The position numbers and the translations under genes were made by a program. A stretch of DNA of 64,000 bases from Escherichia coli (lineage in GTDB: Bacteria; Pseudomonadota; Gammaproteobacteria; Enterobacterales; Enterobacteriaceae). The notes under the pieces were generated by a model. It worked only from the letters and a program-made list of their open reading frames with translations, ran no database searches and had not been told where the DNA came from. The stretch is taken from the NCBI RefSeq assembly GCF_003334355.1, contig NZ_QOWP01000001.1; one strand, given 5' to 3'. Shown piece after piece: positions 1,100 to 6,994 of the stretch. The number at the start of each line of letters is the position of its first letter. Within the stretch, counting starts at the first letter, position 1.

Positions 1100-1442
1100 A
1101 ATCTTTCCTCGCTTAAAAAACAAGACGCCTTATCATAGCAGCCAGCCTCTTGATACCCAATCTCTTGCTTCTGGAAAAACGTGGTAATAGAGAAAGAGGT
1201 TAATTTCATTTGGCAAAGGGAAGTATCATCAGCAAAATATTCGCTGTAGAGGTATCGAACTTCCTGACTTTTTACCCTATTTCCCATCCTGATGCGTAAT
1301 AATCCCAATTTATCACATTGATTTTATCGCCACTCATATTGATACGTATCACTGCCCCTATTCAGAGTCCTGTTTCGTATCATATCTGTGTTTTTTTAAC
1401 GTCATCACACTTCCTACCTCCCCTAACGCTTATCGTCGTTTC

Positions 1443-1458
1443 TGGCGTAAATCTTGCC
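1443..1458 (+). promoter_or_regulatory. Candidate sigma54 (RpoN) -24/-12 promoter upstream of xdhA
   Basis: TGGCGTAAATCTTGCC: TGGC and TTGC at the canonical 11-nt offset of the sigma54 consensus TGGCACG-N4-TTGCW, about 95 bp upstream of the xdhA ATG at 1553; the sigma54 activator ygeV is encoded adjacent. Confidence 0.5.
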
Positions 1459-1552
1459 TGCTTAGACTAAATCTTTGCCATAAGAACCAAATGTTCAAAT
1501 CGAGGGGATTTCTATGGAAGCGCGGGAAGCAACCGCTACGGGTGAATCATGC

Positions 1553-3811
1553 ATGCGCGTCGATGCCATTGCTAAGGTCACCGGGCGGGCACGATATACT
1601 GACGATTATGTTATGGCGGGCATGTGTTATGCGAAATATGTACGTAGCCCTATCGCACATGGTTATGCCGTAAGTATTAATGATGAACAAGCCAGAAGTT
1701 TGCCGGGCGTACTGGCGATTTTTACCTGGGAAGATGTGCCTGATATTCCATTCGCTACAGCTGGGCATGCCTGGACACTTGACGAAAACAAGCGCGATAC
1801 CGCCGATCGCGCACTGCTAACTCGCCATGTTCGTCATCATGGTGACACCGTTGCCATCGTCGTGGCCCGCGATGAACTCACGGCAGAAAAAGCGGCGCAA
1901 TTGGTCAGCATTGAGTGGCAAGAATTACCCGTTATCACCACGCCAGAAGCGGCGCTGGCAGAAGACGCTGCACCAATCCATAACGGTGGCAATTTACTGA
2001 AACAAAGCACGATGTCGACGGGTAATGTCCAACAAACAATCGATGCCGCCGACTACCAGGTACAGGGGCACTATCAGACCCCCGTTATTCAACATTGTCA
2101 CATGGAAAGCGTAACATCGCTGGCGTGGATGGAGGATGACTCGCGAATTACCATCGTTTCCAGCACCCAGATCCCGCACATTGTTCGCCGCGTGGTTGGT
2201 CAGGCGCTGGATATTCCCTGGTCATGCGTACGAGTCATCAAACCATTTGTCGGTGGCGGTTTTGGTAATAAACAGGATGTACTGGAAGAGCCAATGGCGG
2301 CATTCCTGACCAGCAAGCTTGGCGGCATTCCGGTGAAAGTTTCCCTTAGCCGTGAAGAGTGTTTCCTCGCAACCCGTACCCGCCACGCTTTTACCATTGA
2401 CGGGCAAATGGGCGTGAACCGCGACGGAACATTGAAAGGTTATAGTCTGGATGTTCTGTCTAACACCGGCGCTTATGCATCTCACGGGCACTCCATCGCT
2501 TCTGCGGGGGGGAATAAAGTCGCTTACCTTTATCCTCGTTGTGCCTACGCTTACAGTTCAAAGACCTGCTATACCAACCTCCCCTCGGCTGGTGCGATGC
2601 GTGGTTATGGCGCGCCACAAGTCGTATTTGCCGTTGAGTCTATGCTTGATGACGCCGCGACAGCGTTAGGTATTGATCCTGTTGAAATTCGTTTACGCAA
2701 CGCCGCCCGCGAAGGAGATGCTAATCCGCTCACGGGCAAACGTATTTACAGCGCAGGGTTGCCGGAGTGTCTTGAAAAAGGCCGGAAAATCTTTGAATGG
2801 GAAAAACGCCGTGCAGAATGCCAGAACCAGCAAGGCAATTTGCGCCGCGGCGTTGGCGTCGCCTGTTTTAGCTACACCTCTAACACCTGGCCTGTCGGCG
2901 TAGAAATAGCAGGCGCGCGCCTTCTGATGAATCAGGATGGAACCATCAACGTGCAAAGCGGCGCGACGGAAATCGGTCAGGGTGCCGACACCGTCTTCTC
3001 GCAAATGGTGGCAGAAACCGTGGGGGTTCCGGTCAGCGACGTTCGCGTTATTTCAACTCAAGATACCGACGTTACGCCGTTCGATCCCGGCGCATTTGCC
3101 TCACGCCAGAGCTATGTTGCCGCGCCTGCGCTGCGCAGTGCGGCACTATTATTAAAAGAGAAAATCATCGCTCACGCCGCAGTCATGCTACATCAGTCAG
3201 CGATGAATCTGACCCTGATAAAAGGCCATATCGTGCTGGTTGAACGACCGGAAGAGCCGTTAATGTCGTTAAAAGATTTGGCGATGGACGCTTTCTACCA
3301 CCCTGAACGCGGCGGGCAGCTCTCTGCTGAAAGCTCCATCAAAACCACCACTAACCCACCGGCGTTTGGCTGTACCTTTGTTGATCTGACGGTCGATATT
3401 GCGCTGTGCAAAGTCACCATCAACCGCATCCTCAACGTTCATGATTCAGGGCATATTCTTAATCCACTGCTGGCAGAAGGTCAGGTACACGGCGGAATGG
3501 GAATGGGCATTGGCTGGGCGCTATTTGAAGAGATGATCATCGATGCTAAAAGCGGCGTGGTCCGTAACCCCAATCTGCTGGATTACAAAATGCCGACCAT
3601 GCCGGATCTGCCACAACTGGAAAGCGCGTTCGTCGAAATCAATGAGCCGCAATCCGCATACGGACATAAGTCACTGGGTGAGCCACCAATAATTCCTGTT
3701 GCCGCTGCTATTCGTAACGCGGTGAAGATGGCTACCGGTGTTGCAATCAATACACTGCCGCTGACGCCAAAACGGTTATATGAAGAGTTCCATCTGGCAG
3801 GATTGATTTGA
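1553..3811 (+). CDS. xdhA: Xanthine dehydrogenase, molybdopterin-binding large subunit
   Basis: ORF 1514..3811; aldehyde oxidase/xanthine dehydrogenase Mo-binding family sequence throughout. Start at 1553 (MRVDAIAKV, 752 aa) by recall; the upstream ATG at 1514 has a better SD (GAGGGG-N6-ATG) and may be the true start. Confidence 0.93.
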   Translation: MRVDAIAKVTGRARYTDDYVMAGMCYAKYVRSPIAHGYAVSINDEQARSLPGVLAIFTWEDVPDIPFATAGHAWTLDENKRDTADRALLTRHVRHHGDTVAIVVARDELTAEKAAQLVSIEWQELPVITTPEAALAEDAAPIHNGGNLLKQSTMSTGNVQQTIDAADYQVQGHYQTPVIQHCHMESVTSLAWMEDDSRITIVSSTQIPHIVRRVVGQALDIPWSCVRVIKPFVGGGFGNKQDVLEEPMAAFLTSKLGGIPVKVSLSREECFLATRTRHAFTIDGQMGVNRDGTLKGYSLDVLSNTGAYASHGHSIASAGGNKVAYLYPRCAYAYSSKTCYTNLPSAGAMRGYGAPQVVFAVESMLDDAATALGIDPVEIRLRNAAREGDANPLTGKRIYSAGLPECLEKGRKIFEWEKRRAECQNQQGNLRRGVGVACFSYTSNTWPVGVEIAGARLLMNQDGTINVQSGATEIGQGADTVFSQMVAETVGVPVSDVRVISTQDTDVTPFDPGAFASRQSYVAAPALRSAALLLKEKIIAHAAVMLHQSAMNLTLIKGHIVLVERPEEPLMSLKDLAMDAFYHPERGGQLSAESSIKTTTNPPAFGCTFVDLTVDIALCKVTINRILNVHDSGHILNPLLAEGQVHGGMGMGIGWALFEEMIIDAKSGVVRNPNLLDYKMPTMPDLPQLESAFVEINEPQSAYGHKSLGEPPIIPVAAAIRNAVKMATGVAINTLPLTPKRLYEEFHLAGLI

Positions 3812-3821
3812 GGATAACATC

Positions 3822-4700
3822 ATGTTTGATTTTGCTTCTTACCATCGCGCAGCAACCCTTGCCGATGCCATCAACCTGCTGGCTGACAACCCGCAGGCCA
3901 AACTGCTCGCCGGTGGCACTGACGTACTGATTCAGCTCCACCATCACAATGACCGTTATCGCCATATTGTTGATATTCATAATCTGGCGGAGCTGCGGGG
4001 AATTACGCTGGCGGAAGATGGCTCGCTACGTATCGGCTCTGCAACGACATTTACCCAGCTAATAGAAGATCCTATAACTCAACGTCATCTCCCGGCGTTA
4101 TGTGCTGCGGCCACGTCCATTGCTGGACCGCAGATCCGTAACGTCGCTACCTACGGTGGAAATATTTGCAACGGTGCCACCAGCGCAGATTCTGCCACGC
4201 CAACGCTAATTTATGACGCGAAACTGGAGATCCACTCCCCGCGCGGTGTTCGTTTCGTCCCGATTAATGGCTTTCACACCGGGCCGGGCAAAGTGTCTCT
4301 TGAGCATGACGAAATCCTCGTCGCCTTTCATTTTCCGCCACAGCCGAAAGAACACGCGGGCAGCGCGCATTTTAAATATGCCATGCGCGACGCAATGGAT
4401 ATTTCAACGATTGGCTGCGCCGCACATTGCCGACTGGATAACGGCAATTTCAGCGAATTACGCCTGGCATTTGGTGTTGCCGCGCCAACGCCGATTCGCT
4501 GCCAACATGCCGAACAGACTGCACAAAATGCGCCATTAAACCTGCAAACGCTGGAAGCTATCAGCGAATCTGTCCTGCAAGATGTCGCCCCGCGTTCTTC
4601 ATGGCGGGCCAGTAAAGAGTTTCGTCTGCATCTCATCCAGACGATGACCAAAAAAGTGATTAGCGAAGCCGTCGCCGCGGCGGGGGGAAAATTGCAATGA
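3822..4700 (+). CDS. xdhB: Xanthine dehydrogenase, FAD-binding subunit
   Basis: 292-aa ORF; CO dehydrogenase flavoprotein-like FAD-binding domain (LLAGGTDV motif); follows xdhA by 10 bp. Confidence 0.93.
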
Positions 4701-5176
4701 ATCACAGCGAAACAATTACCATCGAATGCACCATTAACGGGATGCCTTTTCAGCTTCACGCCGCACCAGGCACGCCGCTCTCGGAATTACTCCGCGAACA
4801 AGGACTGCTAAGTGTCAAACAAGGGTGCTGCGTGGGTGAATGTGGTGCCTGTACGGTGTTGGTCGACGGCACAGCAATAGACAGTTGCTTATACCTTGCC
4901 GCCTGGGCTGAAGGAAAAGAGATCCGCACGCTGGAAGGTGAAGCGAAAGGCGGAAAACTTTCTCATGTTCAGCAGGCTTATGCGAAATCCGGCGCAGTGC
5001 AGTGCGGGTTTTGTACGCCTGGCCTGATTATGGCTACCACGGCAATGCTGGCGAAACCACGCGAGAAGCCATTAACCATTACGGAAATTCGTCGCGGACT
5101 GGCGGGAAATCTTTGTCGCTGCACGGGGTATCAGATGATTGTAAATACAGTTCTGGATTGCGAGAAAACGAAGTAA
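4697..5176 (+). CDS. xdhC: Xanthine dehydrogenase, [2Fe-2S] iron-sulfur subunit
   Basis: 159-aa ORF; two 2Fe-2S cysteine clusters ([11 protein letters not shown] and CGFCTPG...CRCTGY); start overlaps the xdhB stop (ATGA). Confidence 0.93.
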
Positions 5177-5215: not shown

Positions 5216-6994
5216 TTATGTGTTTAACAACTCATATTTCTTAATCTTGCGATAGAGCGTAGCAATGCCGATGCCCAGTTCATCAGCAACTTGCTTCTTG
5301 CTGTTATGACGTGAAAGCACCTCGCGGATCATTTGCTTTTCCATCTCCTCCAGCGCCGTGCCGCCCGCATCATCGAGTGACAGGTGCGCCTCACTGACCT
5401 CTGTTACATCACTTTGCTCCGTTGTGCCATTATTCAGCAGATTTGGCGGCAATAGCGTGCTGTCGATAACTTCACCTGAAGGAACCACGTTAACCAGATA
5501 TTCCATCAAATTGCTTAACTCGCGCAGGTTTCCGGGCCAACGATGCTTACGCAATATTTCGACGACATCGGGAGCAATGCCAGGATAAACCGATCCCAGA
5601 CGACGGGTATGCAGATGTAAAAAGTAATGCACCAATAGTTCAATATCTTCCTGACGTTCACGCAGCGGTGGCAGAGTTATCGGGATAACATTAAGTCGGT
5701 AGAAGAGATCTTCGCGGAATTTACCTTCGGCAATGAACTGGGCCAAATTCTGATTAGTTGCAGAAATGATGCGAATGTCGACTTGTATTGGGCTACTGGC
5801 ACCAATCGGCAGAATTTCACGCGCCTCAATAGCGCGCAGTAATTTAGCCTGCAACATTAATGGCATATCACCTATTTCATCGAGAAACAGCGTGCCCGTA
5901 TTCGCCGCCTGAATCAACCCTGTTTTACCGTTGGCAGAAGCGCCAGTAAATGCGCCTTTAACATAACCGAACAGTTCGCTTTCCAGAAGCTGCTCCGGAA
6001 TCGCGGCACAGTTGATAGCAATAAAGGGTTTATTCCGTCTTCCGCTCAACTTATGGATTGCTCGGGCGACGACTTCTTTACCCGTGCCGCTTTCACCAAC
6101 CACCATAACGCTGGATGGGCTGGGTGCAATACGGCTAATGAGTCGTTTTAATTGCCGCATAACACGGCACTCGCCAACCAATTGTTCAATATGTGGTTCA
6201 TCAGGTGCATTTGCTACAGAAAAACTGGTATGCGATTGGTGAAATGCCATTAAAAATAATTGTCGGCCCTGAATGTTATGCAATTGACCAATGATTAATT
6301 CACTTTTATCGTCCCACGAAACAATATGCTGCATATGTCCATGAGTAAAATTACTCTCAAATGTTAATGGTCTGAAACGGATAGGTTTCCCAATAATATT
6401 ATTTTGTACAACACCAAGTGTTTTTAAGGCAGTCTGATTAACAAACTGAACCCGACTTTCATCATCAACAACTAATACGCCCTGATCCATATTATCGATC
6501 ATGGTCGCGAATATTTTACTGATGTTATCTCCTGGCCCCTGATCCTCCAGAAGTTTCGAAACAAAAATGGTGGATATATGGCGAACATAATCAGAAAATT
6601 CGCGTAAATTATCACTGATATGCTCTTGTTGCTCGTGGGTAACGGCAATCAAACTTATCACCCCAACACAACGATCCTGTAAAATGACAGGCGTACCCAG
6701 AAATGCTTTTTCGCGGCAATTTTCTTTACTATCGCAACCTTCGCAAAGGGGATCGAAGCGAGACTGTGTCACAACTTTTTCAGTTTTCGTTTCCAGGACG
6801 TGGCGGAGCAGGCGTGAGTTGCCGCTCAACTGGCGACCAAGAAACTTCCCATACGCGCCCGTTCCGGCAACGCGACACAAGTTTTCATCAACGATCTCAA
6901 CCTCAAGCTGCAAAACGCTGGCAAGCATTCTGGCAAAACGCTGAATTGTCGGTTGAATTTGCATCAATACTGACTGCGTAGTAGCAAGCTCCAT
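5216..6994 (-). CDS. ygeV: Sigma54-dependent transcriptional activator (enhancer-binding protein) with N-terminal sensory region
   Basis: 592-aa ORF; AAA+ Walker A GESGTGKE, sigma54-contact GAFTGA motif (GYVKGAFTGA), C-terminal Fis-type HTH (ELGIGIATLYRKIKKY). Confidence 0.93.
   Translation of the reverse strand: MELATTQSVLMQIQPTIQRFARMLASVLQLEVEIVDENLCRVAGTGAYGKFLGRQLSGNSRLLRHVLETKTEKVVTQSRFDPLCEGCDSKENCREKAFLGTPVILQDRCVGVISLIAVTHEQQEHISDNLREFSDYVRHISTIFVSKLLEDQGPGDNISKIFATMIDNMDQGVLVVDDESRVQFVNQTALKTLGVVQNNIIGKPIRFRPLTFESNFTHGHMQHIVSWDDKSELIIGQLHNIQGRQLFLMAFHQSHTSFSVANAPDEPHIEQLVGECRVMRQLKRLISRIAPSPSSVMVVGESGTGKEVVARAIHKLSGRRNKPFIAINCAAIPEQLLESELFGYVKGAFTGASANGKTGLIQAANTGTLFLDEIGDMPLMLQAKLLRAIEAREILPIGASSPIQVDIRIISATNQNLAQFIAEGKFREDLFYRLNVIPITLPPLRERQEDIELLVHYFLHLHTRRLGSVYPGIAPDVVEILRKHRWPGNLRELSNLMEYLVNVVPSGEVIDSTLLPPNLLNNGTTEQSDVTEVSEAHLSLDDAGGTALEEMEKQMIREVLSRHNSKKQVADELGIGIATLYRKIKKYELLNT

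Follow-up and report, generated by a model that had tools for sequence, protein, structure and literature searches.

We analysed a window of 64,000 nt of Escherichia coli DNA (assembly GCF_003334355.1, contig NZ_QOWP01000001.1) around xdhA, which encodes the molybdenum-binding subunit of xanthine dehydrogenase and has two in-frame candidate start codons. The features to which the text refers are listed below by position in the window:

1442–1458, plus strand: sigma-54 promoter CTGGCGTAAATCTTGCC, with the −24 GG at 1444–1445 and the −12 GC at 1456–1457
1468–1470, plus strand: transcription start deduced from promoter geometry, about 12 nt 3' of the −12 GC
1502–1507, plus strand: Shine-Dalgarno (SD) sequence GAGGGG for the ATG at 1514
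1514–1516, plus strand: proposed true xdhA start codon ATG, invariant in the 42-nt geometry (n = 25 sequences)
1514–1552, plus strand: 13-codon N-terminal extension MEAREATATGESC, as judged by codon periodicity, NF007426, homologues and AlphaFold2
1514–3811, plus strand: xdhA coding sequence in the list of open reading frames (765 aa plus stop)
1540–1548, plus strand: SD-like GGGTGAATC within the coding sequence, 5' of the internal ATG
1541–1543, plus strand: codon 10 (GGT), Gly10 of the motif (V/I)-G-x4-(R/K)-x-D, invariant in 18 orthologues
1553–1555, plus strand: internal ATG, encoding Met14 in the 765-aa protein; start of MG1655 b2866 (752 aa)

XdhA falls in the NCBIfam equivalog NF007426 (cut-off 916 bits), with a score of 1485.1 bits for the 765-aa form and of 1474.2 bits for the 752-aa form (the product when translation starts at 1553). 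Pfam domains found on the 765-aa protein are PF01315 (Ald_Xan_dh_C, residues 23–139), PF02738 (MoCoBD_1, 159–397) and PF20256 (MoCoBD_2, 423–700), a domain order that fits the molybdenum subunits of the xanthine oxidase/aldehyde oxidase family. The operon context is present 3' of xdhA, with ORFs for the FAD subunit XdhB (3822–4700; NF007427, 534 bits versus a cut-off of 287) and the Fe-S subunit XdhC (4697–5176; NF007387, 342 bits versus a cut-off of 212). Public collections contain the exact 765-aa sequence of the window, named XdhA, and lack the 752-aa form of this allele as an exact match. The minus-strand ORF at 5216–6994 (592 aa; ygeV in K-12), a possible enhancer-binding activator for the xdhA promoter, contains a sigma-54 activator AAA+ domain and has matches to PrdR, NtrC and NorR, all of them below the curated cut-offs.

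Upstream of xdhA, TGGCGTAAATCTTGC at 1443–1457 shows the TGGC-N7-TTGC spacing of a sigma-54 promoter, and in a published sigma-54 ChIP-seq table the identical 17-mer is the site given for xdhA, upstream of the gene (PMC4591121, Table 1). The pattern TGGCGTA-N4-TTGC is kept 54–85 nt 5' of the long-form ATG in all 21 sequences compared (the window and 20 orthologous loci). The transcription start deduced from this promoter agrees with the 'Distance 84' given for xdhA in the same published table (1553 − 84 = 1469), and the 5' UTR before ATG 1514 would be about 45 nt long. A promoter that has ChIP-seq support and is conserved upstream of the long-form ATG would thus, through this transcription start, put the long start on the mRNA. 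Scanning of 1000–1800 against Rfam (E-value up to 1) found no structured RNA element in the leader; no terminator-like site was found either, and there were no more sigma-70 promoter-like sites than expected by chance. A role as a conserved enhancer was considered for the palindrome TGATACGTATCA and rejected (it is not kept outside K-12-like strains and is only weakly enriched in the window).

The xdhA frame is closed upstream by a TAA at 1481–1483, and between this stop and 1553 the only canonical in-frame start (ATG, GTG, TTG or CTG) is ATG 1514, which precedes ATG 1553 by 39 nt (13 codons). According to the original prediction, GAGGGG stands 6 nt before ATG 1514, and this was confirmed, with the spacer ATTTCT at 1508–1513 (aligned spacing of 5 nt). 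We computed duplex energies against the 9-nt core anti-SD ACCUCCUUA and the 13-nt 16S tail GAUCACCUCCUUA. Against the core, GAGGGG pairs over 6 bp at −8.0 kcal/mol, within the 5–10 nt before the start codon where a canonical SD lies, as compared to −3.8 kcal/mol at ATG 1553; the predicted unpaired probability is 0.68 for GAGGGG, and the internal site is predicted to be base-paired (unpaired probabilities 0.11–0.16), with an aligned spacing of about 10 nt as counted from the pairing. The GGTGA before ATG 1553 (1541–1545) had been called weak, which is correct for the core anti-SD and incorrect for the 13-nt tail, where GGGUGAAUC (1540–1548) pairs with GAUCACC at −9.5 kcal/mol versus −8.7 kcal/mol at ATG 1514, though its spacing is poor. 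The internal site is weak solely in core complementarity and geometry. SD strength was therefore set aside as the deciding argument for the start, as the ranking of the two sites flips with the extended anti-SD. For about 6% of all ATGs in the window, the upstream duplex equals or exceeds the one at 1514 in strength. Chance alone cannot settle the start, and the comparative evidence is decisive.

The pairing with the 16S tail bears on a reading in which Escherichia initiates at both codons, mainly at 1514 and to some extent at 1553 through GGGUGAAUC, and produces isoforms of 765 and 752 aa. The internal duplex with the 13-nt anti-SD is stronger than those of 97% of the ATGs in the window, GGTGAATCATGCATG is unchanged in Escherichia and several Citrobacter, and in-frame internal initiation in E. 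coli is known from Ribo-RET (10.1101/520783). However, low divergence together with coding constraint would give an identical internal site within Escherichia anyway, the spacing is unfavourable, and the site is predicted to be paired. The 752-aa isoform would also be without the near-invariant Gly10 described below. We consider such dual use of the two codons unlikely; if it does occur, a minor 752-aa isoform could assemble differently with XdhB and XdhC.

For comparison across orthologues we used 29 fetched loci from 12 enterobacterial genera (those named are Escherichia, Citrobacter, Kluyvera, Atlantibacter, Yokenella, Klebsiella indica, Trabulsiella, Pluralibacter, Buttiauxella, Hafnia and Enterobacillus) plus MG1655, i.e. 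30 loci, or 31 sequences with the window. An in-frame upstream ATG with a preceding SD is found in 30/30 orthologous loci (31/31 sequences when the window is counted), the SD at the equivalent place being AAGGGG, GAGGG, AGGAG, AAGGAG or GGAG, in non-coding DNA that is about 55% divergent around it. Over the 31 sequences, duplex energies with the core anti-SD average −7.9 kcal/mol before the upstream ATG and −3.6 kcal/mol before the internal one. The equivalent ATG precedes the Arg15 codon by 45 nt in Buttiauxella, 39 nt in Enterobacillus and 24 nt in Hafnia. At the codon equivalent to 1553, Trabulsiella has CTG or TTG (Leu), Buttiauxella has TTG or TTA, and both Hafnia and Enterobacillus have AAA (Lys); of these codons, TTA and AAA are incapable of initiation. 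The internal SD-like string varies synonymously among the orthologues (GGC GAG, GGC GAT, GGG GAA). Conservation of the extension in orthologues, which had been suggested as a check on the longer N-terminus, thus clearly bears it out, with the upstream ATG and SD always present and the internal Met lost in four genera. For dual initiation the same data are unfavourable, as conservation of the internal Met and of the SD-like string ends with the closest genera, beyond which synonymous or Leu/Lys changes are seen.

The extension also evolves like coding sequence, with variation mainly at third positions. Mean pairwise differences at the three codon positions are 0.154/0.122/0.500 for codons 2–13 of the extension, as compared to 0.055/0.055/0.515 for the undisputed codons 15–56 and 0.56/0.59/0.51 for the 42 nt upstream, and no frame-breaking indels were found in the extension among the orthologues compared. 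The dN/dS of the extension is about 0.045 (an indicative value, dS being saturated over 12 codons). Residues 1–5 of the long form are variable among orthologues and in Hafnia eight residues precede the conserved Arg, so the conservation supports a start 5' of Gly10 and not each residue of the extension.

These observations speak to the possibility that the MG1655 record is right, with ATG 1553 as the sole start and the upstream ATG and SD as a non-functional or regulatory feature of the leader. The 752-aa start is present in the curated NC_000913.3, and the extension is not required by any Pfam domain, the first of which (Ald_Xan_dh_C) starts only at residue 23 of the 765-aa protein. Against this, the start codon is missing in four genera, and the supposed leader shows third-position periodicity and no frame-breaking indels. 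The leader moreover includes a residue that 97% of distant homologues share, both family HMMs and the sequences of solved structures align into it, and so short an N-terminus as the 752-aa form would have is seen in just 2 of 143 homologues. We consider it very unlikely that the 752-aa start is the only one, more so than dual initiation.

The homologues were drawn from a library of 1.84 billion proteins, the N-termini of which are themselves gene-caller predictions. The alignment enters the extension in 126/143 homologue representatives, and the number of residues before the equivalent of Arg15 has a median of 13 (one or none in two of the 143). In 14 fusion proteins among the homologues the segment lies internally, so that it is certainly translated there. 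Gly10 stands opposite a Gly in 116/119 distant homologue representatives and is nearly invariant in the MAFFT alignment (A2). The long form reads T-G10-ESCM-R15-V-D17 in the (V/I)-G-x4-(R/K)-x-D segment before K-V-T-G; among the homologues, Arg or Lys occupies position 15 in 101/133, Asp position 17 in 122/141 and Pro position 14 in 72/131. The short form would lack the motif Gly.

Profile searches agree with the alignments. The long form matches positions 2–761 of the 761 in NF007426 and the short form 11–761; positions 2–10 are matched by the long form alone, for a gain of 10.9 bits. Ten of the 13 related family models score higher with the extension (by 1.1 to 10.9 bits). In the AlphaFold2 model (mean pLDDT 96.9), residues 1–5 are below 50, residues 7–10 lie between 70 and 90, and values are at least 90 from residue 11 onwards, so that residues 7–13 are confidently placed in the predicted fold. 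The C-terminal part of the extension, roughly seven residues around Gly10, belongs to the conserved N-terminal segment of the molybdenum subunits of the xanthine oxidase family, and its first five residues form a variable and probably flexible tail.

The published initiation-profiling and N-terminomics sources that we searched yielded no direct experimental evidence for where xdhA starts. xdhA entries are absent from the TRAINSPOTTER N-terminomics, TetRP and ribosome-signature supplements, the main text of the Ribo-RET preprint (10.1101/520783) does not mention xdhA, and a full-text literature search for diagnostic XdhA peptides returned no papers. Among the xdhA peaks listed for INRI-seq are downstream in vitro peaks, one in frame at +60 and two out of frame at +76 and +127, none of which has any signal in vivo. 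The INRI-seq constructs begin 30 nt 5' of the 752-aa ATG, which excludes ATG 1514 from them. We also looked for a purified E. coli XdhABC whose N-terminus is known, and the one candidate paper (10.1101/2023.12.06.570370) was discarded, as it used commercial enzyme and involved no cloning.

Putting the comparative evidence together, xdhA very probably starts at ATG 1514 and encodes 765 aa, transcribed from the sigma-54 promoter, with ATG 1553 internal; the longer N-terminus put forward in the original prediction, by 13 residues, is strongly supported. Transcription from the promoter at 1442–1458 would begin near 1469, and GAGGGG with its 6-nt spacer would direct SD-led initiation at ATG 1514 to give the 765-aa XdhA. 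ATG 1553 would then be the codon of Met14 and not a physiological start. That ribosomes use ATG 1514 in vivo is something we infer from these data.

The 765-aa XdhA is already known, as both PGAP RefSeq and NCBIfam use the long form, and it represents no new biology. All six of the PGAP-annotated RefSeq E. coli genomes that we checked start the coding sequence at the equivalent of 1514 (765 aa), and the curated record of MG1655 (NC_000913.3, b2866) keeps the 752-aa start. By the comparative evidence, it is the K-12 MG1655 record, and not the PGAP call, that is in error, with a 752-aa start carried over from an earlier annotation.

The consequence is small but real. Anyone cloning, tagging or modelling XdhA from K-12 or UniProt coordinates drops 13 N-terminal residues, including a Gly that is conserved in ~97% of the family and lies in a segment that AlphaFold2 models within the fold, and this truncation could compromise expression or assembly of XdhABC, an enzyme for which reconstitution from purified subunits has never been achieved (10.1101/2023.12.06.570370). 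Synthetic constructs designed on MG1655 coordinates, such as the INRI-seq pool, are unable to test the true start. A change to one line of the MG1655 record, a routine annotation fix, would put this right.

Similar cases are known in K-12. The start misannotations of potB (from Ribo-RET) and uidR (from INRI-seq) likewise involve two nearby in-frame ATGs and a reference that is possibly wrong. They rest on ribosome footprints, whereas the xdhA case, which has no footprints because the gene is silent under the profiling conditions used, rests on comparative evidence. With the RefSeq/PGAP XdhA (WP_000388136.1, 765 aa, coding sequence of 2298 nt) the proposed start is the same and nothing differs. 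MG1655 b2866 (NP_417342.1) is the same gene with identical DNA in the start region, and its record begins 13 codons later, at window position 1553.

We found no structure of E. coli XdhABC or XdhA in the copy of the PDB that we searched. Its solved relatives share only about 30–40% identity with XdhA and act on other substrates, and where the enzymes are fused, the segment forms an internal linker in place of the N-terminus. The 4-hydroxybenzoyl-CoA reductase alpha subunit (1rm6_A) has the domain order in common with XdhA, and its alignment begins at query residue 13. The same domain order, together with a Gly opposite Gly10, is found in the large subunits of quinoline 2-oxidoreductase (1t3q_B) and nicotinate dehydrogenase (3hrd_A), in CO dehydrogenase CutL (1ffu_B) and in the aldehyde oxidoreductase of D. 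gigas (1sij_A), and the printed alignments of these four extend N-terminal of the KVTG motif into the XdhA extension.

At this point the window contains the actS-xdhA intergenic region and the xdhABC operon, with two xdhA ATGs and upstream sequences as originally described:

1514–3811, xdhA open reading frame, 765 aa from ATG 1514

GAGGGG (1502–1507) and a 6-nt spacer precede the ATG at 1514–1516, and a second ATG (1553–1555) lies in frame 13 codons further on, with GGTGA at 1541–1545. As the reading frame from 1514 encodes 765 aa, a start at 1553 gives 752 aa. The frame is open from a TAA at 1481–1483 on, and ATG 1514 is the sole canonical in-frame start codon ahead of codon 14. From ~190 to 2708, where the comparison ends, the window is identical to K-12 MG1655 apart from one SNP at 1847 (Ala to Thr in XdhA relative to NC_000913.3). 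The window does not come from MG1655 itself: its first ~190 nt are wholly unlike NC_000913.3; a tRNA-Gly(CCC) is located at 192–265.

ATG 1514 is very probably the physiological start of xdhA, with initiation of the ordinary Shine-Dalgarno (SD)-led kind on a transcript that would be sigma-54-dependent. The orthologous ATG and SD, coding-type evolution, family homology and PGAP/NCBIfam annotation agree in supporting the original prediction that the N-terminus may be 13 residues longer. Conservation of this extension in orthologues, proposed at the time as a check, was found: with one genome scanned per species, 32 loci were recovered, 29 of which include the 5' end of xdhA, and all 29, together with the added MG1655, have an in-frame ATG equivalent to 1514. 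This ATG is 42 nt ahead of the Arg15 codon (residues numbered on the 765-aa form) in Escherichia, Citrobacter, Kluyvera, Atlantibacter, Yokenella, Klebsiella indica, Trabulsiella and Pluralibacter, 45 nt in Buttiauxella, 39 nt in Enterobacillus and 24 nt in Hafnia, and each has an SD ahead of it (AAGGGG, GAGGG, AGGAG, AAGGAG, etc.). Mean energies with the core anti-SD across orthologues are -7.9 kcal/mol at the upstream site vs -3.6 at the internal site. At the 752-aa start, the codon is CTG/TTG in Trabulsiella, TTG/TTA in Buttiauxella, and AAA in Hafnia and Enterobacillus; judged from these codons, the shorter start is nonexistent in these genera, which makes exclusive use of ATG 1553 hardly credible.

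Mean pairwise differences by codon position, calculated only for the 25 sequences with the 42-nt geometry, are 0.154/0.122/0.500 for extension codons 2–13 and 0.055/0.055/0.515 for codons 15–56, and the periodicity is absent from the 42 nt upstream of the long ATG (0.56/0.59/0.51). By this measure, the extension evolves like protein-coding sequence, under weaker constraint than the domain after it. Three loci stand out: a peptide encoded on a 459-nt contig under the name Terrisporobacter mayombei has 99% identity to E. coli XdhA residues 544–695 (probably assembly contamination), the xdhA product of "Citrobacter sp. MGH106" shares 97% identity with that of E. coli, and the allele in "C. freundii M-21" is Atlantibacter-like. 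Such cases point to genomes with wrong labels or to recent transfer.

The description of the internal SD as weak is only partly correct, since the order of the two sites depends on the length of 16S rRNA tail considered. Against the 9-nt core anti-SD, ATG 1514 has a duplex energy of -8.0 kcal/mol and ATG 1553 one of -3.8; the 13-nt 3' tail gives -8.7 vs -9.5, because GGGUGAAUC (1540–1548) pairs with GAUCACC. This better energy would favor minor initiation at ATG 1553 in addition to ATG 1514, but the aligned spacing at the internal site, counted from the pairing, is long (~10 nt, vs 5 nt upstream), and folding of the inferred leader leaves this site mostly base-paired (unpaired probability 0.11–0.16 vs 0.53–0.68), and we consider such dual initiation unlikely. 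Of all ATGs in the window, ~6% are preceded by a duplex equal to or better than that of ATG 1514. Energies, spacing and pairing are soft arguments, and SD strength cannot decide the choice of start. An out-of-frame ATG at 1549, 4 nt ahead of ATG 1553 (ATCATGCATGC), shares the SD-like GGGUGA with it. The first SD base (window 1502) is polymorphic within Escherichia: GAGGGG is found in the window, MG1655 (locus L004) and RefSeq strains at loci L001–L003, and AAGGGG in E. coli E69, E. coli SCPM-O-B-8794, Escherichia sp. E1V33, E. whittamii, E. albertii and most Citrobacter, with a predicted energy shift of merely -8.0 to -7.6 kcal/mol.

The 17-mer CTGGCGTAAATCTTGCC at 1442–1458 is the ChIP-seq sigma-54 site listed upstream of xdhA (PMC4591121 Table 1), and promoter geometry places the transcription start at ~1469. 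The tabulated "Distance 84" agrees (1553 minus 84 is 1469), so both ATGs would be on the mRNA, with a leader of ~45 nt to ATG 1514. TGGCGTA-N4-TTGC is kept 54–85 nt upstream of the long ATG in 21 of 21 sequences examined. A candidate activator gene is also present:

5216–6994, minus strand, sigma-54-type activator gene (ygeV in K-12)

The sequence TGATACGTATCA is a perfect palindrome and, with a related copy, TGTTTCGTATCA, lies ~60–105 nt upstream of the promoter (1340–1351 and 1371–1382), where a YgeV enhancer site could plausibly be; no such motif was found ahead of xdhA in most of the other species, nor in E. coli E69. No Rfam match to a structured RNA was found within 1000–1800. In E. coli DETEC-P61 (NZ_CP116152.1), an IS1 family transposase splits the match to window 1124–1800 in two; this insertion between actS and xdhA might interrupt the sigma-54 promoter region or substitute for it.

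Published profiling and N-terminomics data and the literature searched yielded no experimental XdhA N-terminus or initiating ribosomes on xdhA, and neither a structure of E. coli XdhA nor a purified recombinant enzyme whose N-terminus is defined turned up in the PDB sequences and literature searched. Under standard laboratory conditions xdhA is silent; the INRI-seq comparison table gives it a Ribo-RET signal of zero. INRI-seq in vitro peaks inside xdhA are at +60 (in-frame ATG 1613) and, out of frame, at +76 and +127, and their in vivo signal is zero; ATG 1514 was left out of the synthetic mRNAs because only 30 nt precede the MG1655 start in them.

RefSeq/PGAP and NCBIfam already have the long start. 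Six PGAP-annotated RefSeq E. coli genomes were sampled to span the identity range; all have a 2298-nt xdhA from the equivalent of 1514, and the CDS in NC_000913.3 (MG1655) is still 2259 nt (752 aa); the "alternative" start is therefore standard everywhere but in the K-12 reference lineage. The exact 765-aa protein is already public as XdhA (full-length members of its cluster have 764–765 aa), and the exact 752-aa version of this allele was not in the public collections searched. The upshot is the correction of one reference record.

Part of the extension also appears to belong to the family fold. Of the NCBIfam XdhA equivalog NF007426, the long form matches model positions 2–761 and the short form just 11–761 (10.9 bits apart), and the extension adds 1.1 to 10.9 bits in 10 of 13 related models. 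Among the 150 top matches from 1.84 billion cluster representatives, 143 have alignments reaching the N-terminal region, and 126 of these run into the extension. A median of 13 residues precede the Arg15 equivalent, with one or none in just 2 homologues and >100 in 14, which are fusions. Gly10 is Gly in 116 of 119 homologues (and nearly invariant in the MAFFT alignment A2, whose first rows show (V/I)-G-x4-(R/K)-x-D), Asp17 is Asp in 122 of 141, and column 14, Met in E. coli, is Pro in 72 of 131. AlphaFold2 on A2 gave a mean pLDDT of 96.9 (<50 for residues 1–5, 70–90 for residues 7–10, at least 90 from residue 11 onward). XdhA begun at Met14 would be without a conserved, structured piece of the fold. 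In fused enzymes, the model positions matching the extension are internal, and the sequences of enzymes with solved structures, quinoline oxidoreductase (1t3q_B), nicotinate dehydrogenase (3hrd_A), CO dehydrogenase (1ffu_B) and aldehyde oxidoreductase (1sij_A) all align into the extension, each with its own Gly opposite Gly10.
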